Below are positions 35,468 through 62,327 of a DNA stretch of 64,000 nucleotides, one piece after another; positions within the stretch are counted from its first letter, which is position 1, and each line of letters opens with the position of its first letter. The notes below the pieces were generated by a model that was not told the DNA's origin, searched no databases, and saw nothing but the letters and a program-made list of their open reading frames with translations. The position numbers and the translations under genes are program-made. The DNA is from Elusimicrobiota bacterium (lineage in GTDB: Bacteria; Elusimicrobiota; UBA5214; JBBAAG01), in the NCBI GenBank assembly GCA_041658405.1, contig JBBAAG010000001.1, forward strand, positions 43,386-107,385, given 5' to 3'.

Positions 35468-35491
35468 AATAACGCAGGAGTTCCGTTATTT
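35467..35491. terminator. Hairpin terminator between convergent dfx and the 934-aa gene
   Basis: The perfect 8-bp inverted repeat aaataacg/cgttattt has a 9-nt loop and is followed by ttgcaattt. It overlaps the last codons of the minus-strand gene. Confidence 0.35.
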
Positions 35492-38290: not shown

Positions 38291-38307
38291 AAAAAAACGG
38301 TTCTCCT

Positions 38308-39408
38308 TTATCTATTTTCTATTAACTTCAACGCTTGACTAATATAATCCGGCACGGATGACGATGGGGTGGGGGGATATACAGTAAGCATACGCCGACA
38401 TTCTTCAATTGCTGCGGTATATGATATTTTTTTAGGAACTTTACCGAATATTTTATCCGCATTTGATGAGTATATCTTCCTCAAAACTTCTTCCGGGAGG
38501 TTAAGCCCGTGCAGGACATACTTCCCAGCTTCCCAACGGTCATCGGATTCCATCAACCGCCGGATATGGAGTATATGGTTCACTGATTTCTCAACGCTAA
38601 ACTTACCTCCGCGCAAAGCGTTATCACTGCCGAAAACTATGCGTTCGCTGTATTTGACAAACATTTCCCGGGTTGTATCCAAGTTTTTTGCGATATCAAA
38701 ATACACCCAACTCCCCGGAGTGATATCCATATAAAAATTCGGGTATTCTTCGAATATCCGTGATAACCTCGGGATGTTGTGTGTCATAAAAAACATATGC
38801 GCAAAAACGAAATTTACACGGGGATGGCGTTTAACCACGCTTAATGCATCCTGCCACAAAAATTCCAAGGTCGGATAAGTATTGTCGTATACCCATCCTT
38901 TGGCTTTCAAATGTTCCGGCGCATTGATGAGGTCCCAGTATATAAGCGGGTCTCCTACGTGCCAGAGAACCGGGAGGTTATTGGTTTCTAACGATTTAAA
39001 AAACGGGGTGAATACCGGCGAACCGATTTTGTGTTTATAGCTAACATAATATTCTGGCTTGGATTCAATAAGTTTGACACCATCAAATCCCAGTGCGTGT
39101 ATCCGTTCCGCCTGGTGTTCCAAGGCTTTCGCTGCAGAAGGTTCGTCCATATCAAACACTTCAACATCATCCGGTGCGCCAAGGCCGTAAACTTTATCCG
39201 GATACAACACTTTTGCGGCAAGTACCACGGGGTTAGAGTTCACCCGTGACATTACTTCACTCCCGGGTTTCATATGCCCGAGAGTAAGCATCCCGAACTT
39301 TGTTACACCACACGCTGAGGATGATAGTCCGTCAACACAGGTGCGGATGTCCCCGGGTACATCGCAGTGTATATGCGTATCAAAAATATTTGTATTATTT
39401 ATTTTCAT
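38308..39408 (-). CDS. Amidohydrolase-2 family TIM-barrel hydrolase
   Basis: DTHIHCD is an HxH metal site, and HVGDP is present. Length is 366 aa. There is a 4-bp overlap with the upstream gene. Confidence 0.55.
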   Translation of the reverse strand: MKINNTNIFDTHIHCDVPGDIRTCVDGLSSSACGVTKFGMLTLGHMKPGSEVMSRVNSNPVVLAAKVLYPDKVYGLGAPDDVEVFDMDEPSAAKALEHQAERIHALGFDGVKLIESKPEYYVSYKHKIGSPVFTPFFKSLETNNLPVLWHVGDPLIYWDLINAPEHLKAKGWVYDNTYPTLEFLWQDALSVVKRHPRVNFVFAHMFFMTHNIPRLSRIFEEYPNFYMDITPGSWVYFDIAKNLDTTREMFVKYSERIVFGSDNALRGGKFSVEKSVNHILHIRRLMESDDRWEAGKYVLHGLNLPEEVLRKIYSSNADKIFGKVPKKISYTAAIEECRRMLTVYPPTPSSSVPDYISQALKLIENR

Positions 39409-41051
39409 TTGAAATACAGTTTAATAAACTTTTCCGGGCTGTGATACGTACGGTCAACTTTAGCTAATGAAACTGCCAGTTTACCCTCAGAAATATTATG
39501 CCCCAGGTTTATGCCCCATACATTCGTTGCGCCTATGGTGTTAATCGGTACCACAAATTCTGTACTCCAGAACTTATCCCCGGTATACGCTGCGGTTTTC
39601 CAGCCGGTTGCGTCCCATACAGTGTCATGTGTCTTCCCGCGGGAAGCTGACCTGTCATCAAATACGGTATTATTTGTATTAACTACAATACGATAATACA
39701 TATTCCCGTCAGCTGAGGGGTCGATATATAGTTCTATACTATCATCTTCCCAGACTTTACCGTCATGTGTGACTGCATCTTTTTTTATGCTATCCTTCAC
39801 TTTGATATCACACATTACTCCAATGTACAAGTTTTTGTCATCATACGCGAAGTATGCGGTGGTACCATATAGAACAGGCGCGTTATTTACTTCATTAAAA
39901 TCTGAGACGGTAACAACCGAGGTTGATATCCAAACTTTATCATCGAGACGGCCGTCGAGGATAATACTGCTATCCCCCGGGTTTTTGCTTAACGTCAACG
40001 TTTTCTCCTGTGCAGCAGCTATACTCGAACCAGCAGATGATATTTCGTCTCTCATCTGGTAAGTTGTTTGGATATAGAATTCAGGTTTTATGGTTAATGG
40101 TATAACAAACTCCTGTTCTTCTTTAATGCCTTCATGATAAATCCGGACATCCGAATGGATGGAATCCACGTTCTTCGGTGAGTTCCATTTTGGCGCTGGT
40201 AATTTATCAATGGGAAGCATGTATACTGTCCGTACCTCTATACGGTCTTTGTAAACCTTGAAGTATCTATAGCATACCGAGTTCACCAGTGCACTGGTAT
40301 TTACCTGATGAAAATTGTTATTGCGGGTATACGCGTTTATATGGTTATGCCCGTTAATGAAAACCACCGGGCGTGTAATGCCTTCCTGTGTAAGCCACTG
40401 TGTAAAACTTGCCGGGATAAAGTCCAGCCCGCGTTTTTTCATTGCACCGCCATCACGGCATGATACCGCAGGATAGTGTGTCGCAATAACCACCGGGAGG
40501 TTGCTATGTGCCTCCGCGTTTTTTATGATCCAGTCAGTCCATTCCCGCGCATCGGATTTTCTGAACGTAGCACCAATGAAGTATACCCCGGATTTTTCAA
40601 ATTCGTAGTTAAGCGCAGGTGTGCCAAAAACTATCGCGTAATTCGTTTGTTCCAGCGGTAATGCCACAACAGCTGTACTGGTTGCAACGTCGTGGTTTCC
40701 TCCCAGAATGAAGAGTTTGGTGTTAAGTTTTGACATTATTGACTTAAACTTTTCCATACTTTTAACATCGCCGTAGTTCGCAATATCGCCGGTCACTACC
40801 ACAAAATCAGGGACTGAATGATATGTTTTATTATTTATTGCATTAACAAACATTGTGAGGTACTTAATATTTTCCTGGTACGGGTTCCGTAACGCAGGGT
40901 CAGGGTTGTCGTCAGACATTATATGGACATCCGTTATTTGCGCAAATGAACATAACGGCGTTTCTGCTGCTGACTTTACAGGCTTTCCCGCACTGTACGC
41001 CTGCGGAGAAAATGTTAGAAAAACCAGTACCGCCATTAATAACCTTAACAT
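39405..41051 (-). CDS. Secreted calcineurin-like metallophosphoesterase fused to C-terminal CBM9/DOMON-like domain
   Basis: It has a signal peptide. ITDVHIMSD, VVTGDIANYG and GGNHD are phosphoesterase motifs. The C-terminus GRLDDKVWIS...EDDSIELYIDP is CBM9-like. Confidence 0.65.
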   Translation of the reverse strand: MLRLLMAVLVFLTFSPQAYSAGKPVKSAAETPLCSFAQITDVHIMSDDNPDPALRNPYQENIKYLTMFVNAINNKTYHSVPDFVVVTGDIANYGDVKSMEKFKSIMSKLNTKLFILGGNHDVATSTAVVALPLEQTNYAIVFGTPALNYEFEKSGVYFIGATFRKSDAREWTDWIIKNAEAHSNLPVVIATHYPAVSCRDGGAMKKRGLDFIPASFTQWLTQEGITRPVVFINGHNHINAYTRNNNFHQVNTSALVNSVCYRYFKVYKDRIEVRTVYMLPIDKLPAPKWNSPKNVDSIHSDVRIYHEGIKEEQEFVIPLTIKPEFYIQTTYQMRDEISSAGSSIAAAQEKTLTLSKNPGDSSIILDGRLDDKVWISTSVVTVSDFNEVNNAPVLYGTTAYFAYDDKNLYIGVMCDIKVKDSIKKDAVTHDGKVWEDDSIELYIDPSADGNMYYRIVVNTNNTVFDDRSASRGKTHDTVWDATGWKTAAYTGDKFWSTEFVVPINTIGATNVWGINLGHNISEGKLAVSLAKVDRTYHSPEKFIKLYFK

Positions 41052-41069
41052 TAAAACGCCTCCTGTTTG

Positions 41070-43199
41070 TTATAATACCTTTTTTAGTAAATAAGTTACA
41101 ACCTTACCCGGCTGGATAACAACTTCAGCGTCAATACTTTTACCTGCCAGGCAGGAGTACCACAATGATTCTGTATTGTTCTGGTAATCATATTTATACA
41201 ATGCATACCCGTTACTTTGTTGTAATGAATACTCCGCAGGGTTAATATTAAACTTAACCGAAACTGGTTCATTAACCGCGCAGTTTGTCAAAATAACGCA
41301 TACCGTATCATCATTTTTGTTATACCACGCAGAAGATTGTATTACCGCCATTTTGTGGGTTAACGTATTAGCCCAGATTTTGCGGGTTACTTCCACCTGC
41401 AGGACCGTATCCTCAATCCTTACAGGCATAGCGTACTCACCGGAGACAATATATTTTGATAATGCCCTCCGCGCCTGTGCAAGGGTTTTTAGGTACTCAC
41501 CTGCCGGGGTGGGTGATGGAAAAAAGAGTTCTGATGGTAGATCCCACGCAAGCTGCGCGCCAAAAGTAAAACATTCCGCTACGCGCGCACGAAAAGATTG
41601 GTGATCGCCTTTAAGTTCATGTTCCGCTATGTAATACATTCCGAAAGTAGAGGTGTACCCGCTGTACACCGCGGAAAACAGGGGGGCCATATCGTCACCG
41701 CAGCAGTTTACCATTAACTGGTTATCTATAAAATCAATATACGGTTCCGCATTACCTTCGGAAGTAATAAAAAACTGCGGATTTTCTTTTTGTCCATAAG
41801 TTTTTACCTGTTCCAGTAACTTACGGTAACTGCGTACCCATGCGTCACGCCCGCCTACAGGATGGGCGTGTGAGGCGTCATAACACAGTTTTGGGGGTGC
41901 AATCGCGATCTGGTCAATATAAATACCGTCTATACTGTAGTCTTTAATAAGTTTTTTTACGAGGTTAAGCACAATTTTTCTCCAACCCGGTGCGGTGGGG
42001 CACATAACACAGAGTTTACGTTTTGATGCGTAAAGTTCAATACTGACTTCACCGGTACTATCCTTCACGGCAAGAGGTTTGCCTGTGGTTTCAAACTCAG
42101 GGTTCTCACTGTCATACAACCGGCCGTTGATATACGGCATCACAGGGATATTGTTATCCTTCAATGTTTTAACTTCACCCGCAAACTCCGCTTTCGCTGG
42201 GAAGTAGTGCGGGTACGTATGGTCAAACGGTATCTGATGCCAATAATAGTAGTGGCACGCCAGAGGGATACCCAGGTACTGCGCTTTTTTTACGACATCC
42301 GCTGCCTGGGTACGTGTAGGACGAGGGGAGTTAAGCCCGGCGTTTGACCAGATAACGGTATCCAGCATTACCGGTGAATAATCTTTACGTTCATCAATCC
42401 TGCCTTTTGAACACCACAGTTGTTTTACCGCCCAGGAACGGTACTCTTTCCCTGCAGTATACCACCCGCCGGAGAGAGGTTTAAGAATAAACGCGTACTC
42501 GAGGTTCACCGTTTTTGGCTGGTTAACAAAATCTTTTGGGAAGTTTGTTATCGAATACTTTATTGTATGTTTAACTTTATCAGTCTCAAGGTTGAACTGT
42601 TTAATCCCGGCATTCCCGTCACACGCAGCGAGGTATACACTTTTTTCATTGCCTTGTAATGCATCACTATGATCTGTCTGCCCGATAAACTGCATAACAT
42701 AATGACCCGGATAGTATGGTGATAGGGTTTTATAGCGGTCACATGCATTTTTAATAACACGGCCCCAGCCGTCGCATAAGATAGTTTTTGAATCCTTACC
42801 CGCGGATACAGTGATTACCGGGAAATGCAGTTTGTTTAGTTTCCACATACCGTCATCAGGACGGGCAAGTTTTATTTTCCATAAAACATTACCGGCATCG
42901 TTGTCGTACTCAAGCCGGACAGTAACGTCAATACTTAACGTTTTACTTTCTTCAAACACTTTCCGCCACTTAAGCGTTACGCTATCCGGCGTATCCTGTT
43001 TAAGCGAATACTTACCCGGTAAAAGGTTGGTGAATACAGCTGTAGTTTTAGTTTCAGCATTAACAAATTCTGCATGCCATAACACTGTCCCGGGGATAAA
43101 GTTATAGGTTAGTCCCTGAATCCCGGTATTACCCATGTGTTCAATTGACCCGGTCTTATCATTAAATACGTGTAAAAGATTCTGTATCTGTATTTTCAT
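41070..43199 (-). CDS. Hypothetical 709-aa protein, possible glycoside-hydrolase-like TIM barrel (GHL)
   Basis: It is collinear with the neighbouring secreted-protein genes. The central region has YYYWHQ, GIYIDQIA and CYDASHAH-type motifs. I recognised no clear family. Confidence 0.35.
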   Translation of the reverse strand: MKIQIQNLLHVFNDKTGSIEHMGNTGIQGLTYNFIPGTVLWHAEFVNAETKTTAVFTNLLPGKYSLKQDTPDSVTLKWRKVFEESKTLSIDVTVRLEYDNDAGNVLWKIKLARPDDGMWKLNKLHFPVITVSAGKDSKTILCDGWGRVIKNACDRYKTLSPYYPGHYVMQFIGQTDHSDALQGNEKSVYLAACDGNAGIKQFNLETDKVKHTIKYSITNFPKDFVNQPKTVNLEYAFILKPLSGGWYTAGKEYRSWAVKQLWCSKGRIDERKDYSPVMLDTVIWSNAGLNSPRPTRTQAADVVKKAQYLGIPLACHYYYWHQIPFDHTYPHYFPAKAEFAGEVKTLKDNNIPVMPYINGRLYDSENPEFETTGKPLAVKDSTGEVSIELYASKRKLCVMCPTAPGWRKIVLNLVKKLIKDYSIDGIYIDQIAIAPPKLCYDASHAHPVGGRDAWVRSYRKLLEQVKTYGQKENPQFFITSEGNAEPYIDFIDNQLMVNCCGDDMAPLFSAVYSGYTSTFGMYYIAEHELKGDHQSFRARVAECFTFGAQLAWDLPSELFFPSPTPAGEYLKTLAQARRALSKYIVSGEYAMPVRIEDTVLQVEVTRKIWANTLTHKMAVIQSSAWYNKNDDTVCVILTNCAVNEPVSVKFNINPAEYSLQQSNGYALYKYDYQNNTESLWYSCLAGKSIDAEVVIQPGKVVTYLLKKVL

Positions 43200-45591: not shown

Positions 45592-46083
45592 ATGACGGAT
45601 AAAAAAGATCCCAAAACGTGTTTAATACTCATAGTCGATGACGACTCCACAGTTGTAGATTTCTTCAGTACTACAATGGAGATTGAAGGGTTTACTACAG
45701 AAATTGCGTTCGACGGCGGTGAAGCTTTGGCAAGTATGCGTAAGTCCAAACCTTCACTCATCCTGCTTGACCTCATGCTCCCAACCAAAGGCGGGTACGA
45801 AGTATTACGGGAAATGCAGTCGGATAAAGAACTTAAGGATATCCCGGTAATCGTTATTACCGCTAAGAGTTTGGAAGCTGAATCAAAAAAGTTTTTGGCG
45901 GAAGGCGTTAATATCCTTGAAATTATTGAGAAACCGATTAATCCTACCATCCTCGCGCATAAGGTTCATAAAGCTCTTAATACACTGACAATGGAAGATA
46001 AAATTATTGAACGCGGGAAAAAACAGCTTGAACAGCTTAACATTAAACCTGAACAGTTAAAGAAAAAGTTATGGGATTACTGA
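45592..46083 (+). CDS. Stand-alone response-regulator receiver (REC) domain protein
   Basis: LILIVDDDSTVVDFF...ILLDLMLPTKGGYEV...ITAKS is a CheY-like fold with conserved D/D/K. It has no output domain. Confidence 0.75.
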   Translation: MTDKKDPKTCLILIVDDDSTVVDFFSTTMEIEGFTTEIAFDGGEALASMRKSKPSLILLDLMLPTKGGYEVLREMQSDKELKDIPVIVITAKSLEAESKKFLAEGVNILEIIEKPINPTILAHKVHKALNTLTMEDKIIERGKKQLEQLNIKPEQLKKKLWDY

Positions 46084-46469
46084 AGGACCGTCTGATACTT
46101 GTCGTAGATGACGACCTTATGGTTGCTGACCTGTTCAAACTTACCGTTGAATCCGAAGGCCTCCGTGCGGAGGTTGCTGGTGACGGAAAAATTGCGTTAC
46201 AAAAAATTGCTGACCTCAAACCCGACCTCGTGATACTAGACCTTATGATGCCCAATATGGGCGGGTACGAGGTACTGCGTAAACTTCAAGCTGATCCTGA
46301 ACTAAATAAAATGCCGGTGATCGTTGCTACCGCTAAAATAATGGATCCCGGGACTAAGGCGGTGCTCACAGAAGGGGTTAATGTCCCTGAAATTATTGAA
46401 AAACCCGTGGATATTGAAGCGTTAATGAAACTTGTCCACCGTATGCTTCCGCAGGAGGGGAGGAAATGA
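46071..46469 (+). CDS. Stand-alone REC domain protein (tandem paralog)
   Basis: LILVVDDDLMVADLF...VILDLMMPNMGGYEV...ATAK is present. It overlaps the previous gene by 13 bp. Confidence 0.75.
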   Translation: MGLLKDRLILVVDDDLMVADLFKLTVESEGLRAEVAGDGKIALQKIADLKPDLVILDLMMPNMGGYEVLRKLQADPELNKMPVIVATAKIMDPGTKAVLTEGVNVPEIIEKPVDIEALMKLVHRMLPQEGRK

Positions 46470-46975
46470 ACATATTTACAAAAGTATTTACTAAAAAGTG
46501 GGTGCAGATAGTATCAGCAGTTATTGTTTTTATCCTCACCGTCTACACAGTCGTATATTTTGATATAACCTCCCGTGCGAAGGAAGCGTATCTTGAAGCT
46601 GAGAAATACCAGGCATGGCATACCGATCCGCAGTTAAAGGTTAAACAACTTGAGGAACAGTATACCACCGAAAAAAAAGCGCTGGAGAAACGGTTAAACC
46701 CGTCACTCATCAATACAATCCTCGGGGTGAAGAAACTTACGAAAGAAGAACTTGCGCAGCAGGTTGATGCTATTGAGTTTGAACATACCCGCAGATTAAA
46801 CGAGTCATCTATCAAGTACGCGTATGTATGGTACCAAACCTGTGTAGAACTATTTTCTCCGCCGGAATCTAAATGGGTAAAACTTTCCCGTGAAAAAATG
46901 CCGGCAGCCAAGGAGTTGTGGAAAGCAGAACTCCGTGCGAAGAAAATTCCGTTTGAAGACTATATGCTTGACTGA
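46466..46975 (+). CDS. N-terminally membrane-anchored coiled-coil protein
   Basis: It has one N-terminal TM helix (VQIVSAVIVFILTVYTVVYF) and a charged helical remainder. It overlaps the previous gene by 4 bp. Confidence 0.4.
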   Translation: MNIFTKVFTKKWVQIVSAVIVFILTVYTVVYFDITSRAKEAYLEAEKYQAWHTDPQLKVKQLEEQYTTEKKALEKRLNPSLINTILGVKKLTKEELAQQVDAIEFEHTRRLNESSIKYAYVWYQTCVELFSPPESKWVKLSREKMPAAKELWKAELRAKKIPFEDYMLD

Positions 46976-46989
46976 CCTCAGAAAAAGAT

Positions 46990-47715
46990 ATGCCGGGATT
47001 CCTGAACTTTTTATTCAAAACATTAGTAACCATCCTCTTATTCCCGTTATCGATTGGCGCGGTATACGCACTGGCGCGGGTATTAACCGCTCCGCAGGCA
47101 CGGAATACCGCCTATTTCTGGTACCTCGCGGGGGGTACACTCGCGTATCCTGTCCTCCAAATCTTTATCCCGAAACCTATGTGGATATACACACTTGCGC
47201 ATGAGGTTACCCACGCGATTACGTCAATATTATTCGGGGGTAAAGTGTTAAGCATGAAAGTAACCGCCCGGGGGGGTAAGGTGGTGGTAACAAAATCCAA
47301 TTTTCTGGTAGCCCTGGCACCGTATGTATTCCCGTTCTACGCTGCAATACTTATGCTCCTATGGTATATTCTTACATTAACCTATGGCCCGGAGGTTGGA
47401 TTGTACTACCACTGGTTTTTACTGGTACTGGGATTACTTACAGGATTCCATCTCACACTTACATGGTACGCCATAAGTCTTGGCCAGACTGACCTAAAGC
47501 AAACAGGGGTTATGTTTTCATTATTCTTTGTGTTATTCACTAACTGCGTATTCATAGTGCTGATAATGAAAGCCGCAGCGCCGGGTAGTGTTGATACAAA
47601 AACTTTTTTTACAGACCTTGCAGCGTTCCAGGGAACCTTCTGGGTCTATGCGTACATCTACGCCATTAAACTATGGCAGTACATCATACTATTGACACGT
47701 TCCCTTACTCAATAA
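46990..47715 (+). CDS. Polytopic membrane zinc metalloprotease-like protein (HExxH within TM; Peptidase_M50B-like)
   Basis: YTLAHEVTHAITSILFGG has HExxH embedded in a hydrophobic segment. There are about 6 TM helices. Length is 241 aa. Confidence 0.5.
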   Translation: MPGFLNFLFKTLVTILLFPLSIGAVYALARVLTAPQARNTAYFWYLAGGTLAYPVLQIFIPKPMWIYTLAHEVTHAITSILFGGKVLSMKVTARGGKVVVTKSNFLVALAPYVFPFYAAILMLLWYILTLTYGPEVGLYYHWFLLVLGLLTGFHLTLTWYAISLGQTDLKQTGVMFSLFFVLFTNCVFIVLIMKAAAPGSVDTKTFFTDLAAFQGTFWVYAYIYAIKLWQYIILLTRSLTQ

Positions 47716-48728: not shown

Positions 48729-48828
48729 AAAGTATAAAACTCCTTCTCCAAATATTTTGTGTTTCCAGATACAATTATACTATTTTTGCTCATTCTATGA
48801 ATATCAGCTTGCTACCCATATCGTACAA

Positions 48829-49767
48829 TCAACTTAAGAAAATATTTTCATTGTGCCAAGAAAGGTAGTTTATTGAAGGCTTATTCTTTTCTTCGGGTAC
48901 ACTTTTTAATGAACTACCATGCACTGCATAATAATCTCTTCCATTCTCAAACTCCTCACGAATTCTTCTGCTGACTTCAACTTTTAAATCCGGTGTTATA
49001 GTAATATATCCCGTATCAAATAGCTTATGCAGATCCGAACGTAGTAATAAACCATTGGTGATTATATTGGGGCCGTTTTTAGAAATTGGCTGTATATGTG
49101 CCGCTTCTAAAACAGGTAACGTTCTTTCACCAGTAATCGCACATTTTTTATAATAAATATCTGTTACTATTAACCTGAATCCACCCTGACCTAATCTAGA
49201 TTTCGTTAGATAAGGATTTCCATATATTGCGGTCGAATCTGGCATTTCGTATTTACTTATTGTAAGTAAGGGATTGTATTTCACTAATCTTTCTGAAATC
49301 ATTTTAAACAAATTAAATCCTTCTGCTTCTTCAGTCTTATATATTTTTCCTCTAACTATATTTGAACTCCAACTTTGTGGTATATCAATCCAATCTTCTC
49401 TTTTAAAGAAAAATGGTGTTGAAAGCACGTTACATACTATTGATAGAGTGTGAATATTTTTGTTGTTAATTTCTTTGTTATATTTTTTTAAAACTGGTAG
49501 AAAATCATCTAATGCTTTTACACCATTTTTTTCTCCAAACGTTTCCCATGCTAATGCAATTGGAATTATAGTACTTGTTTCAAAAAAGCCACCACCAACA
49601 ATAAAATCTAATGGGCTATGCAATTTAAAAAGAAAAAGTTCTTTTGAAGACAATGCTTTAAAGGAGGTTAGTGATGGCTGCCAAAAATTTACTTCGTCGG
49701 GTAATGGATTTTGAGATGACAAATATTCAAACCATCTATTATCTGTTACACCTATCCAAATTTTCAC
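48829..49767 (-). CDS. HNH-family endonuclease (HNH_2-type) with N-terminal PUA/EVE-like domain; putative type IV (modification-dependent) restriction enzyme
   Basis: The C-terminus CAITGERTLPVLEAAHIQPISKNGPNIITNGLLLRSDLHKLFDTGYITITPD is the C...C...AHI.P....N.GL.L....H..FD.G pattern of HNH_2 nucleases. The N-terminal approximately 200 aa (KIWIGVTDNRWFEYL...FLFKLHSPLDFIVGGGFFE) resembles PUA-like/EVE folds. Confidence 0.65.
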   Translation of the reverse strand: MKIWIGVTDNRWFEYLSSQNPLPDEVNFWQPSLTSFKALSSKELFLFKLHSPLDFIVGGGFFETSTIIPIALAWETFGEKNGVKALDDFLPVLKKYNKEINNKNIHTLSIVCNVLSTPFFFKREDWIDIPQSWSSNIVRGKIYKTEEAEGFNLFKMISERLVKYNPLLTISKYEMPDSTAIYGNPYLTKSRLGQGGFRLIVTDIYYKKCAITGERTLPVLEAAHIQPISKNGPNIITNGLLLRSDLHKLFDTGYITITPDLKVEVSRRIREEFENGRDYYAVHGSSLKSVPEEKNKPSINYLSWHNENIFLS

Positions 49768-49964
49768 ATATTCACCTTTTTACTTTAAAGATTTAGATAA
49801 TATGATAATTCAAACGAGGCTTAACTTAACAAAAACCGATTACGGGCGCGATTACTAGCTTTTAAATTAATGATACTAAACAACAACTTATCAATCAATA
49901 AATATGTTTATGTTGTTATCATCATCTTTTTTGTATAATTGTAAGTATATTCGGATATAAAGAA

Positions 49965-51962
49965 GTGGATAAATATCAAGAAATAATTATGAAAAGATCT
50001 TACTATTCTGACTCTATTGAGCGTTTTCTTAATACAAATACTGACGAAATTCTTGGAAAACTAACAAAAAACAGCGATTTTGATTTAGGACAAGCTCAAA
50101 GAGATTCATGGATAGAAGAAATTAGTATTTTAAAGTCAGTTCTTTCTTATTATACGGGCGCGATATATTTTGAATATTCTATCCCTCGAATGGGGAAACG
50201 CATAGACGTAGTACTTCTTATTGATTCCATAATCTTCGTTCTTGAATTTAAGATTGGCGAAAAACAATTTACTTCATATGCAATAGACCAAGTATATGAT
50301 TACGCACTAGACTTAAAGAATTTTCACGAAACGAGTCATAACCAACCTATTGCACCAATTCTCATAGCAACAGGCGTTAAAAATTGTGATTTAGCTGATC
50401 CAATAATACGCATAGATGATAATTTGTTTTCACCTATACGAACCAATGATAAATTTTTAAATACTGTCATTAAATATGTTCTACAATTTTCTCCCGAACA
50501 CAAAATAGACCAACTGGCATGGGAAAAAGGGAGATATTGCCCTACACCTACCATTATAGAAGCAGCTATGGCCCTCTATAATAGCCATTCCGTTAATGAT
50601 ATATCTCGAAACGATGCTAGCGCAAAAAATCTGAGCATAACGTCAGAATCGATATCAGAAATTATTAGTTATTCAAAAACGAAATACAGAAAATCTATAT
50701 GTTTTGTAACCGGCGTACCTGGGGCCGGGAAAACTTTAGTTGGACTTAATATTGCAACCAAATATATTGATAAATCGAGTGATCTCCATAGTGTATTTCT
50801 ATCCGGAAACGGTCCGTTGGTATCAATACTACGGGAAGCTCTTGCACGTGATAAGGTTCAACAATCAAAAGAACGTGGAATACGAATAAGAAAAGGTATT
50901 GCAATGAGTGAAGTAAAGATGTTTATTCAAAATGTGCACAATTTTCGTGATGATTGTCTTGATAACTTAAAACCCCCATTGGAACATGTTGTTCTTTTTG
51001 ATGAAGCGCAACGCGCGTGGAATAAAGAACAGACAACAAATTTTATGCGTCGAAAAAAGAATAAGCCTAATTTTAACCGTTCAGAATCAGAATTTCTAAT
51101 TTCATGCTTGGATCGACATACAGATTGGGCAGTTATCGTATGTCTAGTTGGTGGAGGTCAGGAAATTAATACAGGTGAGGCAGGAATTAGTGAATGGTTA
51201 GCATCCTTGAATAACTCGTTTAAAGATTGGGATATTTATATATCCGCCCATCTTACCGATAGCGAATATAACACAAATGACGTTCTAGATAAATTAAAAT
51301 CACGAATAAATATTAACTTAAAAAATGACTTACATCTTGCAGTATCAATGCGTTCTTTCCGAGCTGAACATGTTTCGTTATTAGTAAAGCAATTACTCGA
51401 TCTTGAAAATGCCGAGGCATATAGAACTTTGATAGAAATTCAGGAAAAGTATCCTATTGTTTTGACTCGTAACTTGGCTAAAGCAAAACAGTGGCTCAGG
51501 TCGAAAGCACGAGGTTCAGAACGTTATGGCCTTGTCGTGTCTTCTCAAGCCGAACGACTAAAACCGTATGCAATAGATGTTAAATCACCAATGGAGCCAA
51601 TTCATTGGTTTCTTGATGGAAAAGAAGATGTTCGTTCTTCCTATTATTTAGAAGACGTTGCAACAGAGTTTGATATCCAAGGCCTCGAACTTGATTGGGC
51701 AGGGATTATCTGGGATGCCGATTTCCGACATTCAAATGAAGGTTGGAACCACTGGTCTTTTTGCGGTGATAGATGGAATCACATTAGGAAACCAGAAAGA
51801 CAAAGTTACCAAAAGAATGCCTATCGCGTACTTTTAACTCGTGCACGCCAAGGAATGGTGATTGTTGTACCAGAAGGAGATGCTGGTGATCCAACTCGAA
51901 AAAAAGAATATTATGACCCTACTTATGAATATTTAAAGGAAATTGGTTTTACGGAGATATAA
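49965..51962 (+). CDS. PD-(D/E)xK nuclease fused to DUF2075-type SF1-helicase-like P-loop ATPase (Schlafen/Nhi-like nuclease-helicase)
   Basis: The N-terminus [22 protein letters not shown] has the D...ExK nuclease motif. Walker A is [13 protein letters not shown] and Walker B is VVLFDEAQ. The C-terminus [13 protein letters not shown] is a helicase motif VI-like. An alternative start is the ATG at 49989. Confidence 0.65.
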
Positions 51963-57692: not shown

Positions 57693-59792
57693 ATGATGAA
57701 AATATTTTTGTCTACCTTTTTGTTAAGCCTGGCTGGTTATCTGAGTAATGCTGACTGTGCAAACCTGCAAAATAATTCTTTATACGACCCGTCATTGGAT
57801 ATTACTTCAGTTGAAGCTATGGAAAAGAGTTTAATAATAAAATTAACGGGTATCCTCAAAACACCGGTAAAATTGATTGAACTTAAACCTTACCAAAAAT
57901 ATACGCTTGACTCAAAACTGAGTATCGCCTGGCAGGGGATCCCCGAAAATAACCGTATCGAAATACCCAGGTTTGCGGGTACACAGGACAGGTTATTTTC
58001 AAAATTTCAAATAATTGATTCTAAGTCCAGGCAACGGGCCGGGAAATCTCATTATGTAAACGACTTATCGTCGGTATCATTACGTAACTTCGATTTTCTC
58101 CGGCCTGCAAGTATTAAAGGGCTTCAGGTGCAGGATGTAGAAGATGCGGTTCTTCTAGGGGTTAAACATGCGGCAATAAATATTTCGGTCTCAAGTATAA
58201 TTAATTGGTCTACCGGTACCCCTAGCGAAACATGGGAAGTAGACGGTGAAAATATACCGATTAATACTAAGTATATAAGTAGATTAGACACTACCTGCAA
58301 AAACCTGACTGCTGCAGGAATTGATATTACCGGAATTCTTCTTAACCATGTGCCGGATAGCCCAAACCCGCAAAATTATTTAATTCATCCAAAAACGGAT
58401 TTAGCTAACGCACCGAATCATTTAGGAGCATTTAATACGGCTACTGACCCCGGGTTACGTTACTATCATGCAGTAATTGAATATCTGGCTAACCGTTACT
58501 CTGATCCAACGGGTAAATTCGGCTGGGTTTCCGGTTACATTATTGGTAATGAAGTTCAGTCACACCTGGAATGGTATAATATCGGTAAAATCACGTTATC
58601 TGATTTTGTTGAAGATTACGGGATTGCTTTACGGATTGCCGATCTTGCAGCAAGAAAATTTCATTCTAAAATCCGGATTTACGTATCCTTAGACCATCAT
58701 TGGAGTACAGCCCTTCGCCCTGATCCGTTAACGGCATTTAATGGTAAAGAATTTGTGGAACAATTAACTATTTGGTCAAAAAACAGCGGTGATTTCCCCT
58801 GGCATATTGCTTTTCATCCGTACCCGGAGAACCTTTTCGAACCGCGGTTCTGGAATGACCGGATGGCAGTATTAAGTTTTGACACACCCAAGATTACTTT
58901 TAAAAATATTGAAGTATTACCTGCGTTTCTAAACCAGGATATTTTATTGTACCGAGGTCAGCCGCGACGGATTATTCTCTCAGAGCAGGGATTTCATACA
59001 CCAGCGGGGATAGACGGCGAAAAAGTTCAGGCAGCTGCTTATGCATATGCTTTCCATAAACTCAGCCATCTGCCGGGGATAGACGCATTTATTCTTCATC
59101 GGCATGTAGACCATAAAGGAGAGGGTAACCTGAGGTTAGGTCTTTGGACCTGGACAGAAAATGATCCTAATGCTTCTAAGCCTGATAAGAAAAAATATAT
59201 ATATGACGTGTTCCGTCTGGCAGATACCGCACAGCGGGAAAGTGTATTCGAGTTCGCCAAACCAATCATTGGAATAAAAGATTGGGCTGAAACATTACCC
59301 GTACTTTCTACAAGTACTTATACTAAACTATCCTGGAATCCGGTCCCGGAGGAAACAGAATCTGTTGTTATCAATTTAACTGACAATATAAACAATGCCG
59401 TACTTACAAACTGTTTATCCTGGCGTAGTGAAGTTGTACTTTATAACGAAACCCTAAAAAAATCTATTTTCCATCATCCTAAGGAACTAGCTGATAGTGA
59501 CGCTACTTTTACGATTAAGCTCCCTGTTCTGAAGTCAGGAAAAAAGTTGAGTTTCGTATTTGGTACCGGTTTAACTCATGAAAGTGTTGATGGTGCACGG
59601 TTTTCTGTCTTGATTGACGGTAAAGAATTATGGGATGTTTCTGATAAAAATACGGTAATAAACGAATACAAAATTGATTTAACACCATGGGCTGGGAAAA
59701 CTGTTTTATTAACCCTCCGGGTAAACCCGCTGGAAAACACTCAATATGACTGGCTGGTCTGGGTGTATCCGCTGATAATCACAGAAAAATAA
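57693..59792 (+). CDS. Secreted 699-aa hypothetical protein, possible clan GH-A-like glycoside hydrolase
   Basis: It has a signal peptide. The IIGNEVQ (NEP-like acid/base) motif lies in a TIM-barrel-like region. I recognised no firm family. Confidence 0.35.
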   Translation: MMKIFLSTFLLSLAGYLSNADCANLQNNSLYDPSLDITSVEAMEKSLIIKLTGILKTPVKLIELKPYQKYTLDSKLSIAWQGIPENNRIEIPRFAGTQDRLFSKFQIIDSKSRQRAGKSHYVNDLSSVSLRNFDFLRPASIKGLQVQDVEDAVLLGVKHAAINISVSSIINWSTGTPSETWEVDGENIPINTKYISRLDTTCKNLTAAGIDITGILLNHVPDSPNPQNYLIHPKTDLANAPNHLGAFNTATDPGLRYYHAVIEYLANRYSDPTGKFGWVSGYIIGNEVQSHLEWYNIGKITLSDFVEDYGIALRIADLAARKFHSKIRIYVSLDHHWSTALRPDPLTAFNGKEFVEQLTIWSKNSGDFPWHIAFHPYPENLFEPRFWNDRMAVLSFDTPKITFKNIEVLPAFLNQDILLYRGQPRRIILSEQGFHTPAGIDGEKVQAAAYAYAFHKLSHLPGIDAFILHRHVDHKGEGNLRLGLWTWTENDPNASKPDKKKYIYDVFRLADTAQRESVFEFAKPIIGIKDWAETLPVLSTSTYTKLSWNPVPEETESVVINLTDNINNAVLTNCLSWRSEVVLYNETLKKSIFHHPKELADSDATFTIKLPVLKSGKKLSFVFGTGLTHESVDGARFSVLIDGKELWDVSDKNTVINEYKIDLTPWAGKTVLLTLRVNPLENTQYDWLVWVYPLIITEK

Positions 59793-59798
59793 CATATT

Positions 59799-59884
59799 TG
59801 GGCAAGGAGGGAATCGAACCCTCAAGACCTGTAAGGGTCATAGGTTTTTGAGACCTACGTGTCTGCCAGTTCCACCACTTGCCC
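59799..59884 (-). tRNA. tRNA-Leu (anticodon CAA), class II with long variable arm; CCA not encoded
   Basis: The reverse complement reads GGGCAAG-TG-GTGGAACTGGCAGAC..TAGGT-CTCAAAA-ACCTA..long V-arm..GAGGG-TTCGATT-CCCTC-CTTGCCC-A. It has a 7-bp acceptor stem, a GGTTCGATTCC T-loop and a CAA anticodon in a 7-nt loop. Confidence 0.75.
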
Positions 59885-59960
59885 AGGCTTGTTAATTTCC
59901 GCTTATTATATATAATTTAGTGCGAGTCCGTCAATTTATATGGAAACAGGGGTACTTTAA

Positions 59961-62327
59961 ATGCGTAAATTGTTAATCGCCATTGCCGTTACCGTCGCCA
60001 CTGCGATCTCATCAAGCTTGCAAGGAGCTAACATTGTGTATCCAAACTACATTGGCAAGATAATCCCCGCACCAAAAGAGGTTGTGTACTACCCGGACTT
60101 TTTGATGGTATACAAAAAAAGCGCAGTGGCGTCTTCGCTGTTAATAGTAACTTCGTCGACAGTTGCTCCGGCGGTAGAGTATGCCATTGAATTATTCAAC
60201 GGTAAATTACAGTTTGTTTCTAGCACAACCTCTGTCGTTGACGTTATCTCCGCTCCGTTGAAGGATTACGGGAAGTATGACACTATTATCTCCTTGGGAG
60301 ATAATGGATTAACCGAAGAGCTTGAGAATAAATATAACCTTACCTACAGCACAACAGCACTGGCGAATAGCGAAGGGTATGTTGTCAAAACGGTAAAACA
60401 TAACAATAAAAACGTAATTATCTGTAAAAGCAATACATCCCGCGGGCTGGCATACTCATTGATATCGTTGATTCACATGATGACTACGGATAAGGACGGT
60501 AATGTTGTGCTTCAAAAAGTTGAGGTTACCGACTGGCCATCATACAAAGTTCGTACTGTCAGCGGAACTACGCAATTCGCTAAGATGAAAGAGTATGCGC
60601 GGTGGATGCCGTTGTACAAGCTCAATATGATCGACATAAACTACAACACGCACGATTGGCGAAACCCGGATCAACGATACACCGAGTTTGTTAAAGATGT
60701 GTGTAACAATAGCCGTGATATCGGGTTAGTTGATATCATGCAGTTCGTCAACCCGTACTACTCTGTGAAGGTAACAACATCGTCAAGGATCGTGGTATCC
60801 GACCCCGCAGAACGTGACCGGTTGTTTGCCGATTTTGAGAACAGCCTCGCGCAGGGAGGGAAGTATATAATGCTTTGCGCTGATGACTATACGCATTACA
60901 AAGATAAAGAGTTTATCCTGTTTTACGAAGGGGATAAACAAATGTTTAAAACTGTCGCTGATGCCCAGGCATTCCTTGTGAACGACGTATACCGCCGGGT
61001 GAAAGCTAAATATCCTGAGACAACAATTATTTTCTGCGCACCGCATTATAGCAACGGACACGTGTACGGGTGGAGCCGCGAGCCAAAACTTGCAATTGAT
61101 TATTTTAAAGAACTCGCGGATAAAATACCGTTGGACGTTCCTATCGTATGGACCGGCCCAACGGTGCGGTCGTTCAAGATTACGGAAGATGATGTTAAAG
61201 TTTTTTCCGGTTTCATCAACGGGCGGATACCGTTCCTCTGGGATAATACGTCATACGCGCATCATAAACCATTGATTTGTTTTTTTGATGCCTACGAAAT
61301 CGACTTACCTGCAAACTTTTATGAACTTACCAACCCAAGCGGGATTCATATGAACGGAACTGTTAGTGAAATTTACAAACTTACGCATGTTACCGGCGGT
61401 GACTATATGTGGAACCCAGGGAAGTATAACGCTAACCAGTCAACAAAAGATACGCTAGCGTCTTTACTTGGCCCATCCTGTGCAGAACCGGTATTGGATT
61501 TGAAAAACCAGTATTTTGAAACGTTAAACGTTGTGTTGACCACCCCGAGGAACAAAAGTTACCAATCAACTGTATCCTCGAGCCTCTCAATCCTTGACGC
61601 TAAACTTGACAGCGTTGCAAAAGTGTGCAATGATACCGCGATGATGTCTGAGATACGCAACACCATCCGCACCCCGCGGGTGGAGTACCAAAAGGTGCTG
61701 GACATAAAAAAAGTTGTAGTCAAGAAACTTATGTCCGGAGCGAAGCTTGACCCGGCCATATCTTTTACCGACGAAAAGTGGGAAACGCTTACCCGTACTT
61801 CACAATTTATTCCGATGGATAACAGCGGTAAAATACCGCCTACCTACGCGTATGTAGGGTATGACAATAACAATTTGTATATCGCCGTCGTTGCGGAAGA
61901 ACCCTATGTAAACAAGCTCGGCGGAAAGGTTACCAAGCGTGACAGCGGGGTGTACAACGAAGATAGTATCGAACTGTTTATCGACCCGAAACTTACACGC
62001 GATACTTACTGGCACCTAGGGGTTAATAGTATCAACACACAGTACGATAGCCAGGTGAAACCGGGGACTTCAAAAACCGCGGAAGCAAATATTGAATGGA
62101 TGTCAAACGTAGAAAAAGATTATAATAAGTCGCGCTGGATTGCAAAGTTTGTTATCCCGTTTAAGTCGTTAGGCATGGTACCCGTAGCTGGGGATACCTG
62201 GGGATTGAACTTAAACCGCCAACGGTATATTGATATCGCCGACCCGCAGGAACTATCTACGTGGGCAGGCCTTACCGGTCGGATGTTTTTCCAGCCCAAA
62301 CTGTTTGGAGAGCTGGTATTTGAATAA
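59961..62327 (+). CDS. Secreted glycoside hydrolase-like protein (GH84/GH20-like N-terminal region) with C-terminal CBM9/DOMON-like domain
   Basis: It has a signal peptide. The N-terminus VYPNYIGKIIPAPKEVVYY resembles the hexosaminidase N-domain. The C-terminus NEDSIELFIDP...YWHLGVNS is CBM9-like. Confidence 0.45.
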   Translation: MRKLLIAIAVTVATAISSSLQGANIVYPNYIGKIIPAPKEVVYYPDFLMVYKKSAVASSLLIVTSSTVAPAVEYAIELFNGKLQFVSSTTSVVDVISAPLKDYGKYDTIISLGDNGLTEELENKYNLTYSTTALANSEGYVVKTVKHNNKNVIICKSNTSRGLAYSLISLIHMMTTDKDGNVVLQKVEVTDWPSYKVRTVSGTTQFAKMKEYARWMPLYKLNMIDINYNTHDWRNPDQRYTEFVKDVCNNSRDIGLVDIMQFVNPYYSVKVTTSSRIVVSDPAERDRLFADFENSLAQGGKYIMLCADDYTHYKDKEFILFYEGDKQMFKTVADAQAFLVNDVYRRVKAKYPETTIIFCAPHYSNGHVYGWSREPKLAIDYFKELADKIPLDVPIVWTGPTVRSFKITEDDVKVFSGFINGRIPFLWDNTSYAHHKPLICFFDAYEIDLPANFYELTNPSGIHMNGTVSEIYKLTHVTGGDYMWNPGKYNANQSTKDTLASLLGPSCAEPVLDLKNQYFETLNVVLTTPRNKSYQSTVSSSLSILDAKLDSVAKVCNDTAMMSEIRNTIRTPRVEYQKVLDIKKVVVKKLMSGAKLDPAISFTDEKWETLTRTSQFIPMDNSGKIPPTYAYVGYDNNNLYIAVVAEEPYVNKLGGKVTKRDSGVYNEDSIELFIDPKLTRDTYWHLGVNSINTQYDSQVKPGTSKTAEANIEWMSNVEKDYNKSRWIAKFVIPFKSLGMVPVAGDTWGLNLNRQRYIDIADPQELSTWAGLTGRMFFQPKLFGELVFE

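Follow-up and report, generated by a model that had tools for sequence, protein, structure and literature searches.

The gene at positions 48829-49767 (minus strand) of the window, by which we mean the whole 64,000-nucleotide stretch of Elusimicrobiota DNA analysed here, encodes a protein that probably (at a rough probability of 60%) acts as a stand-alone modification-dependent, type IV-like DNA restriction endonuclease. The protein joins a putative modified-base reader of the PUA superfamily to an HNH_2 nuclease, and PUA-HNH fusions are established modification-dependent endonucleases (PMC6765204). When the whole chain was searched with Foldseek, the best match was the type IV enzyme VcaM4I (E=3e-7), and it is because of this whole-protein match that the reading of a PUA-like domain plus HNH_2 as type IV-like holds. 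Since no characterised member of the family was found in the literature, modification dependence is argued wholly by analogy, and the "type IV" label is drawn from architecture and genomic context.

An intact gene for an HNH_2 nuclease

The 312-aa protein claimed in the initial annotation corresponds to a real and intact gene. Its coordinates match exactly an open reading frame on the minus strand that begins with GTG and ends with a terminal stop codon (48829-48831), and the complete coding sequence yields a product identical to a public protein (P0001). Direct reading of the sequence revealed a Shine-Dalgarno-like AAGGTGA 4 nt 5' of the GTG (49772-49778, minus strand), and the N-terminus, MKIWIGVT, agrees with the family consensus MKFWVGVT in an alignment of 47 sequences. 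All but one of the motif strings quoted in that annotation were found in the protein, including WIGVT (residues 4-8), RWFEY (11-15), FWQPS (28-32) and FLFKLHSPLDFIVGGGFFE (45-63) in the first part of the chain, and EAAHIQP (221-227), NGLLL (238-242) and HKLFDTG (247-253) further on. The description of the N-terminal part as Trp-rich also stood, with six of the seven Trp residues falling within residues 1-133 and W12, W29, W74 and W126 invariant among the 47 homologues. The C-x2-C claimed for the HNH_2 domain is absent, as the whole protein has two cysteines only (C112 and C209). The HNH_2 domain, which starts with KKCAITGE, contains a single one of them (C209); the VcaM4I counterpart of this stretch is RCRVTG, and absence of C-x2-C is normal for HNH_2.

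The nuclease module, delimited by Pfam PF13391 and by alignment to VcaM4I, occupies residues 191-312 (48832-49197, minus strand). The Pfam HNH_2 model matches residues 209-257 (E=1.8e-12, 47.4 bits against a cutoff of 21). The module is composed of the segment RLGQGxFR (191-198), a beta-beta-alpha-Me core formed by H224, N238, H247 and D251, and a tail that ends in WHN (304-306), all of which are invariant in the 47-sequence alignment. In a pairwise alignment to VcaM4I residues 187-275, H224 of our protein falls on the catalytic His224 of VcaM4I, whose H224A variant is an inactive control (PMC7897488). A profile alignment to the PDB entry of VcaM4I (6YEX, residues 176-274) reached E=1.1e-10 over the HNH half only, identifying a nuclease half homologous to that of the EVE-HNH type IV enzymes VcaM4I, TspA15I and CmeDI, with RxGQGxFR aligned. 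The AlphaFold2 model is of low confidence in the core segment 217-229, which includes H224. As judged from sequence, the C-terminal half is a bona fide HNH_2 nuclease, as the initial annotation had proposed.

Between the two halves lies a variable linker that is predicted to be disordered (residues 166-190; 49198-49272, minus strand). The AlphaFold2 model has pLDDT <50 over residues 170-193, and the linker differs in both length and sequence among the homologues in the 47-sequence alignment. Its position is equal to that of the VcaM4I linker helix 148-178 (PMC7897488).

Full-length homologues of the protein number at least 8000, with ~52-56% identity and E-values down to 1e-139. When candidate stretches from species-representative genomes were screened, 586 of the first 600 contained a family member, and many phyla are represented among the 80 listed species loci. 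The N-terminal domain contributed 26 invariant columns to the 47-sequence alignment (~53% identity) and the C-terminal part contributed 38; considering these columns together with the HNH_2 Pfam match and the number of homologues, the architecture is not a product of chance. Searching residues 1-168 with phmmer against 1.84 billion representatives returned 2000 matches at E up to 0.001. Among the best 150 of these, nearly all had the same architecture of ~300 aa or were truncated fragments, and only a few carried an extra N-terminal extension, which could not be assigned; fusions to other effectors may exist further down the list. One protein (P0243) displayed the same N-terminal domain fused to a VcaM4I-type HNH_2, suggesting that the N-terminal domain is modular. 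Based on these sequence comparisons, the reader-HNH family is very large and crosses phyla, and its reader domain is without Pfam coverage.

A homing endonuclease is made less likely by the lack of any full-length homologue among 50,697 phage records, and in a BFVD fold search viral proteins were either HNH-only or ASCH-only, separately. Four homologues are plasmid-borne (two from Deinococcus, one from Mesorhizobium and one from Bradyrhizobium), surrounded by transposases and integrases or by a type ISP R-M enzyme together with an AbiE system.

A PUA-superfamily domain as candidate reader

The N-terminal domain (residues 1-165; 49273-49767, minus strand) is predicted to be an ASCH-like member of the PUA superfamily and is a putative reader of modified bases. 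AlphaFold2 modelled it with a pLDDT of ~90 as a mixed beta-barrel with helices (E2-8, H10-17, E25-30, E44-49, E55-69, H70-81 and further elements), and the best Foldseek match at domain level was ZmASCH (TM 0.64-0.70). The fold of this domain had been named in the initial annotation as a refuting test, and the AlphaFold2 model, with its matches to VcaM4I and ZmASCH, turned out to be PUA-like. The same annotation had described the domain as a PUA/EVE-like reader: the PUA-like fold was retained, and the EVE identity gave way to an ASCH-like one. On the evidence of the model, the fold is that of the PUA superfamily, with ASCH-type proteins as the nearest structural neighbours. These closest structural neighbours are not proven DNA-modification readers.

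Sequence searches returned little for this domain. At E<=1, no Pfam, NCBIfam or PADLOC model matched residues 1-135 or more of the query or the 46 aligned homologues, and neither phmmer nor the family profile retrieved anything for the N-terminal domain from all PDB sequences. Membership of the EVE-HNH group (VcaM4I/TspA15I) was rejected, as neither the query nor the 46 homologues matched EVE (PF01878) at E<=1, and the Pfam ASCH model (PF04266) likewise had no match in residues 1-200 at E<=1. The phosphorothioate SBD-HNH model (NF045808) scored 66.1 bits against a cutoff of 180, aligning residues 195-310 to model positions 163-283 only. PUA-Cal-type PUA domains were compared by motif only, using the motifs of PMC12871103, and both motif II (VWWGWWxKxxExxP) and motif V (TPxYY) are missing from the protein. 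[quoted passage not shown]

Many positions of the domain hold an aromatic or polar residue that does not vary in the 47-sequence alignment. By conservation alone, W12, E25, N27, F28, W29, F47 and K48, and further H50, W74, N81, F119, K141 and Y143, are candidate residues of a binding pocket.

The two-domain plan of the protein is that of VcaM4I and TagI, and like VcaM4I it is without a cognate methyltransferase. TagI and ScoA3IV are SRA-HNH type IV enzymes (PDB 6GHS for TagI); the reader of TagI is an SRA domain, which was a weaker structural match and displayed no sequence similarity to the N-terminal domain of our protein. The nearest experimentally studied analogue among non-EVE, non-SRA PUA-HNH proteins, likened here by description only, is ScoA3V (Sco5330, NP_629471.1), an HNH nicking enzyme stimulated by 6mA with a PUA-like domain "of a different clade" (PMC6765204). 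Its N-terminal domain is distantly PUA-like and falls outside the EVE and SRA clusters (PMC6765204). Close homologues of ScoA3V have been reported in Actinomycetales only, whereas the family described here spans many phyla.

The ASCH proteins ZmASCH (5GUQ), AF2351 (2KKU) and E. coli YqfB share 9-17% identity with the N-terminal domain. Unlike our protein, the ASCH proteins known so far have no HNH fusion; they are small enzymes that stand alone and act on RNA or nucleosides. ZmASCH is a reported ssRNA ribonuclease (cited in PMC7641849) and YqfB is an N4-acylcytidine amidohydrolase (PMC6972931), while a role of ASCH domains as readers of DNA modification has been proposed and explicitly called unproven (PMC11037411). 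As every activity proven for ASCH so far is enzymatic (PMC6972931; PMC11037411), we considered that the protein might not read modifications: its ASCH-like domain could be catalytic (a YqfB-like deacylase or eraser) or directed at RNA (a ZmASCH-like RNA-binding or RNase module), or the protein could be a nuclease indifferent to modification, for instance a toxin, a nickase for repair or an orphan enzyme of type II. The motif K48-x-x-S51 in FLFKLHSP, in which K48 is invariant and S51 near-invariant, has the K-x-x-[TS] spacing of K21/T24 in YqfB (PMC6972931), and the PADLOC "type II HNH" model matches residues 136-311 (E=1.9e-11). Nevertheless, the K-T-R motif of YqfB is only partly mirrored, since its essential Arg26 is without counterpart (the residue at position +5 is L53). 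In addition, HNH_2 is a DNA nuclease family of DNA restriction enzymes, the neighbouring genes belong to DNA-directed defence, and the window holds neither an adjacent methyltransferase nor an antitoxin-sized partner. We therefore judge these possibilities very improbable.

A low-GC islet and the recurrent neighbours of the family

The HNH gene is one of only two genes in a low-GC islet (48750-51600), where GC content is 27-38% against 43-48% in the flanks; the two genes of this ~3-kb islet have GC contents of 0.32 and 0.36, compared with 0.44 elsewhere in the window. The islet probably arrived by horizontal transfer. Neither convincing flanking direct or inverted repeats nor terminators were found around it. 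The two genes diverge from an AT-rich intergenic region of 197 bp (49768-49964, 25% GC), presumably with a shared promoter; as promoter-like matches were as frequent in this region as in shuffled sequence, we claim no specific promoter. The neighbours of the HNH gene in the window are an oxidoreductase, a DUF2075 protein and a ZIP transporter, and no methyltransferase is adjacent to it. It is plausible that the pair is an intact two-gene defence islet amid a chromosomal stretch of housekeeping and carbohydrate-metabolism genes.

The divergent neighbour, identified by Pfam and PADLOC, encodes a DUF2075 protein of 665 aa (49965-51962, plus strand; the start is perhaps the ATG at 49989). This protein carries a PD-(D/E)XK-like N-terminal motif (RID81...E94-F-K96), a Walker A motif (GVPGAGKT, 250-257) and a DUF2075/Schlafen-group-3 helicase domain (Pfam SLFN-g3_helicase, PF09848, E=2.4e-83), and on these grounds its sequence suggests a Nhi-like defence candidate. 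It also matches the PADLOC model PDC-S41 over residues 9-665 (E=5.1e-290). To our knowledge, PDC-S41 is a candidate system only. Nhi and Nhi-like proteins, which combine PD-(D/E)XK and DUF2075 domains, confer protection from phages (10.1101/776245; 10.1101/2022.05.11.491447); Nhi itself consists of one protein that acts alone (10.1101/776245). The similarity of our DUF2075 protein to staphylococcal Nhi is weak and partial (PADLOC Nhi, E=1.3e-6).

Across the 80 species loci of the family, three neighbours recurred at ~19% each: DUF2075, a MazG pyrophosphatase similar to DCTPP1, and a second reader-HNH gene. A DUF2075 gene lay within 600 bp of the family gene in ~15 of the 80 loci. Orthologues of the one in the window (57-77% identity) were found beside family members in four loci. 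In three of these (L027, L041 and L063, from three phyla and in varied orientations) the distance was 0-110 bp, and in the remaining one (L005) it was 2.4 kb. In another 12 loci a second DUF2075 subtype was no more than 600 bp away, frequently as part of an HNH-MazG-DUF2075 cassette.

These associations raise the possibility of an obligate two-gene system, in which the HNH protein would depend on the divergent DUF2075 nuclease-helicase for its function and neither would protect alone; possibly, the reader-HNH protein would mark or nick modified DNA, which the helicase-nuclease would then translocate along and degrade. Besides the close and repeated pairing, such a system would be consistent with the single islet and the 197-bp spacer common to both genes, and with the report of Lutz et al., who saw DUF2075 beside McaZI restriction enzymes and suggested a possible complex (PMC6765204). 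On the other hand, ~80% of the family loci are without a DUF2075 gene, and gene order and orientation vary in a way more like defence-island shuffling than a fixed operon. Furthermore, PDC-S41 is a single PADLOC model, Nhi is a single-protein system (10.1101/776245), and VcaM4I-type enzymes act alone (PMC7897488). Thus we find an obligate pair unlikely. As only about one-fifth of the family loci have a DUF2075 neighbour, a partnership, if there is one, is optional and could be defence-island clustering only.

The MazG-like gene, which is missing from this window, neighbours the family gene in 14-15 of the 80 loci and is directly adjacent in all but one of them; its product is homologous to the dCTP pyrophosphatase DCTPP1 (E ~1e-18). 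Such a frequent operon with a pyrophosphatase links the family to the nucleotide pool rather than to DNA, which would be in line with sensor-triggered abortive infection. In this scenario the PUA-like domain would bind a free modified nucleotide, upon which the HNH domain, possibly switched on by oligomerisation, would degrade DNA indiscriminately. A precedent is PUA-Cal-HAD, which senses m6-dAMP freed by phage degradation of the host chromosome, binding it in an aromatic pocket of a PUA/ASCH-clan domain, and the PUA family of PUA-Cal is reported to occur fused to HNH and to be linked to MazG-like enzymes (PMC12871103). The richness of our N-terminal domain in invariant aromatics also fits such a sensor. 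However, the PUA-Cal motifs are missing from the protein, no HAD partner was found among the neighbours in the 80 loci, and the architecture of the whole chain resembles that of VcaM4I, which reads DNA. The second reader-HNH_2 gene is informative here as well: it was found in tandem in 15 of the 80 loci, and four of these 15 second genes are full-length VcaM4I orthologues (6YEX residues 1-320, E=8.5e-87), which fits a set of DNA-modification readers with differing specificities. Taken together, we regard sensor-triggered abortive infection as quite improbable, and a DNA-directed restriction endonuclease remains our preferred reading.

Other neighbours in the family loci were HsdR/ResIII, McrBC, RAMA, Fic, AbiEii and ORF6N. 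No methylase family was included among the 25 commonest Pfam families of the 148 immediate neighbours of the 80 homologues, and Type I hsdM was found in only four of the 80 loci. Family genes are therefore without a recurrent methyltransferase beside them, and recurrent defence-type neighbours are present.

Proposed mode of action and significance

We infer a mode of action in which a base is flipped, the enzyme dimerises and inhibits itself, and activity depends on modification; any cooperation with the DUF2075 protein is likewise conjectural. The PUA-superfamily (ASCH-like) domain would inspect DNA and hold a flipped-out modified base in its conserved, aromatic-rich pocket. Recognition of the modified base would then lead the C-terminal HNH_2 beta-beta-alpha-Me domain (H224, N238, H247 and D251) to cut nearby DNA, with HNH domains probably dimerising to produce double-strand breaks. 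Until the enzyme binds modified DNA, the flexible linker probably restrains its nuclease. The DUF2075 neighbour probably provides a second layer of defence or, as a partner, processes the DNA after cleavage.

As for the target, modified cytosines are weakly suggested by the DCTPP1-like gene often found beside family members in other genomes, and the ASCH-like fold, considered together with ScoA3V, hints at N4- or N6-modified bases. Tentatively, and as a possibility that we would not rate highly, we propose that the family is a new class of type IV enzymes with an ASCH-like reader, a target other than 5mC or 5hmC, and ties to a DCTPP1-like pyrophosphatase and to Nhi-like DUF2075 proteins. If so, possible targets would include N4-acyl- or N4-methyl-cytosine, 6mA or a hypermodified base of phages, whereas EVE and SRA enzymes read 5mC/5hmC. 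Tandem pairing with VcaM4I orthologues would then provide complementary specificities, while the DCTPP1-like pyrophosphatase would sanitise or deplete modified dNTPs, so that a multi-gene system would hit phages with modified genomes at two levels, their DNA and their nucleotide pool.

Modification-dependent endonucleases such as MspJI, AbaSI and the phosphorothioate-dependent EcoWI serve to map epigenetic marks, and a clade of readers with novel specificity would be of immediate use as a tool for this purpose. An abundant family of ASCH-like-HNH proteins also offers a direct test bed for the proposed reading of modifications by ASCH domains (PMC11037411). Finally, the links to DCTPP1-like pyrophosphatases and DUF2075 proteins suggest that some "single-gene" type IV enzymes may belong to larger systems.

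The gene and its nuclease half

The gene encoding the PUA-like and HNH_2 protein lies on the minus strand at 48829-49767 and is clearly real. It reads from a GTG start, with a Shine-Dalgarno-like AAGGTGA 4 nt 5′ of it, through 312 aa to a stop codon. One protein of the public collection is identical to it, and at least 8000 match it over the full length (52-67% identity and E values of 1e-102 to 1e-139 among the matches listed). The open reading frame and the motifs quoted in the initial annotation were all found in place in the translation: WIGVT (residues 4-8), RWFEY (11-15), FWQPS (28-32), FLFKLHSPLDFIVGGGFFE (45-63), EAAHIQP (221-227), NGLLL (238-242), and HKLFDTG (247-253). The C-x2-C that it had included in the HNH_2 signature is missing, as the only cysteines are C112 and C209. 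The domain begins KKCAITGE, a cysteine pattern that is ordinary for HNH_2, the counterpart in the EVE-HNH type IV enzyme VcaM4I being RCRVTG.

Pfam HNH_2 (PF13391) matched residues 209-257 above its gathering score (E=1.8e-12). When all PDB sequences were searched, the sole credible matches were VcaM4I (6yex, E=1.9e-5 with the single sequence and 1.1e-10 with the family profile) and the SRA-HNH enzyme TagI (6ghs), both of which are characterised modification-dependent enzymes (VcaM4I, PMC7897488). These matches start only at about residue 171-186, and PADLOC HNH models also cover only the C-terminal portion. Pairwise alignment places RLGQGGFR (191-198) against RRGQGIFR of VcaM4I, and H224 against VcaM4I H224, the residue changed in H224A, a variant that was used as an inactive control for the HNH domain on its own (PMC7897488). 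H224, N238, H247, and D251 are invariant in an alignment of 47 homologues. Assignment to the phosphorothioate-dependent endonucleases (NCBIfam) was rejected, with 66 bits against a cutoff of 180 over the C-terminal half only.

A predicted ASCH-like reader domain

Residues 1-200 had no Pfam match at E≤1, the same being true of each of the 46 homologues aligned, and a family-profile search of PDB found none for this region. The 47-sequence alignment displayed 26 invariant columns in the N-terminal domain, including W12, E25, N27, F28, W29, F45-H50, W74, N81, C112, F119, and W126; judged by this alignment, the domain is constrained as strongly as the nuclease. In the AlphaFold2 model built from these sequences, residues 1-165 were confidently modelled (block pLDDT 78-97), residues 170-193 formed a disordered linker, and the HNH part had moderate confidence. 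The top whole-chain Foldseek match was VcaM4I (E=3.1e-7). Meanwhile, the top domain matches were ZmASCH chains (target-normalised TM 0.64-0.70), followed by 2kku, SmMcrB-N, TagI, and 2eve. In a viral structure library, the protein matched only separate HNH-only and ASCH-only proteins.

Because of this model and these matches, we assign the N-terminal domain to the PUA superfamily, and its modelled fold is closer to ASCH than to EVE. The PUA-like fold had been set beforehand as a point on which the type IV-like proposal depended, and both model and Foldseek recovered it. That proposal therefore stands at the level of the PUA superfamily, while its EVE-like part is revised to ASCH-like in view of the nearest structures. 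The comparison of FLFKLHS...FIVGGGFF to the EVE beta3-beta4 hairpin agrees with predicted strands at residues 44-49 and 55-69, a likeness of fold that does not imply EVE membership. The structures nearest to the N-terminal domain are those of enzymes, and K48-x-x-S51 has the spacing of K21-x-x-T24 in YqfB, as might be expected of a catalytic or RNA-directed ASCH domain. However, the essential Arg of YqfB has no counterpart in the protein and the genomic context is one of DNA defence, making this very improbable.

Membership in the VcaM4I group was also rejected. Full-length VcaM4I orthologues occur directly in tandem with homologues of our protein in four species-genome loci (L022:10942-11916, L039:9005-9988, L075:10924-11916, and L086:2441-3433; coordinates within each locus), the first matching 6yex residues 1-320 with E=8.5e-87. 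Their N-terminal domains, which gave thin profiles, aligned to that of our protein with an hhalign probability below 1%. Such pairs resemble type IV enzymes stacked side by side, each with its own kind of reader domain. In the public-collection protein P0243 (35% identical overall), an N-terminal domain of our family (E=2e-27 against residues 1-167) is joined to an HNH_2 domain nearer the VcaM4I type than that of our own family, 40% identical to that of one VcaM4I orthologue. Because of this combination, reader and nuclease behave as separable modules. Two other family members, P0188 (residues 1-99) and P0247 (residues 1-128), carry an extra domain of about 100-125 aa before the PUA-like domain, with ...GRPYPPKQLIALA...GG...LRDLGF and no Pfam or PDB match, which may be a second DNA-recognition module.

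Genomic context of the gene and its family

Together with its divergent neighbour, the gene makes up an islet of low GC (27-38% across about 48.75-51.6 kb), the two genes having GC contents of 0.32 and 0.36, respectively, and the spacer 0.25, versus 0.44 elsewhere in the window. The DNA around it is ordinary chromosome (NAD synthase, CTP synthase, acetolactate synthase, LeuA-like, biotin carboxylase, and several glycoside hydrolases). No flanking repeats marking an integration site were found around the islet, nor any methyltransferase near the gene in the window. Carbohydrate-active enzymes abound at 35486-43199 and 57693-62327 (GH123 with CBM9, DUF6259, DUF5722, NAGidase with CBM9), which suggests a polysaccharide-degrading host. 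At 45592-46469, two stand-alone response-regulator receiver genes lie in tandem (163 and 132 aa, 13-nt overlap) with no adjoining histidine kinase, followed by two small unannotated genes (46466-47715).

The neighbour (49965-51962, plus strand, 665 aa) has a DUF2075/Schlafen-group-3 helicase domain (Pfam, E=2.4e-83) and matches the PADLOC defence candidate PDC-S41 over almost its full length (E=5.1e-290). A PD-(D/E)XK-like D81...E94-x-K96 precedes Walker A (250-257), which is the plan of Nhi, a staphylococcal anti-phage nuclease-helicase (10.1101/776245), and of a Nhi-like protein validated as a defence gene (10.1101/2022.05.11.491447). Its start is ambiguous (49965-49991): the longest frame opens at GTG 49965, and ATG 49989, at about residue 9 of that frame, is the point from which the PADLOC model and the L005 orthologue run.

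Of the first 600 candidate stretches from a scan with one genome for each species, 586 were confirmed as relatives. The best 80 loci of at least 586 relatives include Nitrospira, Burkholderiales, Gammaproteobacteria, Thermodesulfobacteriota, Bacillota, Cyanobacteria, Acidobacteriota, Chloroflexota, Elusimicrobiota, Kiritimatiellia, and others. Full-length copies were found on four plasmids, adjoining transposases and integrases or a type ISP R-M enzyme and AbiE system, and in none of 50,697 phage records.

For the 80 loci, we clustered ORFs lying up to 5 kb from the family gene and searched the 148 immediate neighbours with Pfam. DUF2075 proteins occurred in about 15 loci. These included close orthologues of the window neighbour (57-77% identity; L005, L027, L041, L063) and a second subtype with a NERD-like N-terminus (630-810 aa; L005:4359-6791, L018:11198-13243, and 10 other loci), one copy of which has a Peptidase_S24 domain. 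In L005 both subtypes come after the HNH gene. DUF2075 NTPases also adjoin McaZI, another modification-dependent family (Lutz et al., PMC6765204). An obligate two-gene system of our protein and its DUF2075 neighbour is nevertheless unlikely, as DUF2075 is missing from 80% of the family loci and gene order varies.

A MazG-like protein (PF12643, about 115 aa), homologous to the mammalian dCTP pyrophosphatase DCTPP1/RS21-C6 (E about 1e-18), neighbours the family gene in 14-15 of the 80 loci (e.g. L017:10937-11284, L006:8965-9312, L005:3057-3422) and is absent from the window itself. With one exception it lies right beside the family gene, usually 20-60 bp downstream and on the same strand. HNH-MazG-DUF2075 cassettes are common with the second DUF2075 subtype (L018, L029, L032, L037, L080, L056, L021, L046, L005). 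Given the MazG link, an abortive nuclease that senses nucleotides, as PUA-Cal-HAD does (PMC12871103), is an attractive alternative, but the defining PUA-Cal motifs are absent from our protein and no HAD partner was seen among the neighbours of family loci, leaving this quite improbable. In Nitrospira, the HNH-MazG pair comes right after an ORF of 160-198 aa (L007:7408-8004, L006:7321-7920, L009:9501-10004, L010:9522-10004) resembling an N-terminal DNA methylase fragment (LNW.GKAE..FDVPTLPLFIHERLS), and in L007 it precedes a ResIII-like gene of 1053 aa; possibly, the cassette entered a type III-like R-M operon that had decayed.

A second reader-HNH_2 gene (about 300-330 aa) stands in tandem with the family gene in 15 of the 80 loci, the four VcaM4I orthologues being joined by 11 with another N-terminal domain of no assigned family. 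These 11 (about 300-320 aa; e.g. L018:13284-14186, L055:10900-11853, L021:5385-6335) make up a third HNH_2 family with the conserved N-terminal motif Y.YRG.DP.HRDN.GLR...PLIYF, and this part had no Pfam or PDB sequence match. The remaining neighbours were generic to defence islands (HsdR/ResIII, McrBC, RAMA, Fic, ORF6N, and AbiEii-type ATPases). No DNA methyltransferase family was among the 25 commonest Pfam families of the 148 immediate neighbours; PUA-HNH enzymes seldom adjoin methyltransferases (Lutz et al., PMC6765204).

Proposed action and the modification read

The best-supported reading, to which we give a probability of about 60%, is that the protein is a stand-alone modification-dependent endonuclease. 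Its nuclease identity, co-linearity, conservation, and context are documented here, as is its predicted fold; base flipping, dimerisation, auto-inhibition, and modification dependence we infer by analogy. The PUA-like domain would capture a flipped-out modified base, and the HNH_2 domains, probably dimeric, would cut close by. The linker would hold the nuclease back until modified DNA is bound, a restraint shown for VcaM4I (PMC7897488).

A type IV enzyme combining a PUA-superfamily reader and HNH is of a kind already known. The reader clade itself has no Pfam model and, by sequence comparison, appears to lack a detectable link to EVE, SRA, or PUA-Cal (the last compared by motifs). We found no characterised member in the literature of this very large and widespread family, and a field review regards the DNA-modification-reader role of ASCH domains as still unproven (PMC11037411). 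The clues to the modification read diverge. Among HNH enzymes whose PUA-like domain is neither EVE nor SRA, the one that has been studied, ScoA3V, is stimulated by 6mA (PMC6765204), and N4-acylated cytosine is a substrate of ASCH enzymes (PMC6972931). From the DCTPP1-like partner comes a hint of modified cytosine nucleotides, and the tandem VcaM4I orthologues suggest that the specificity of this family is other than 5mC/5hmC.
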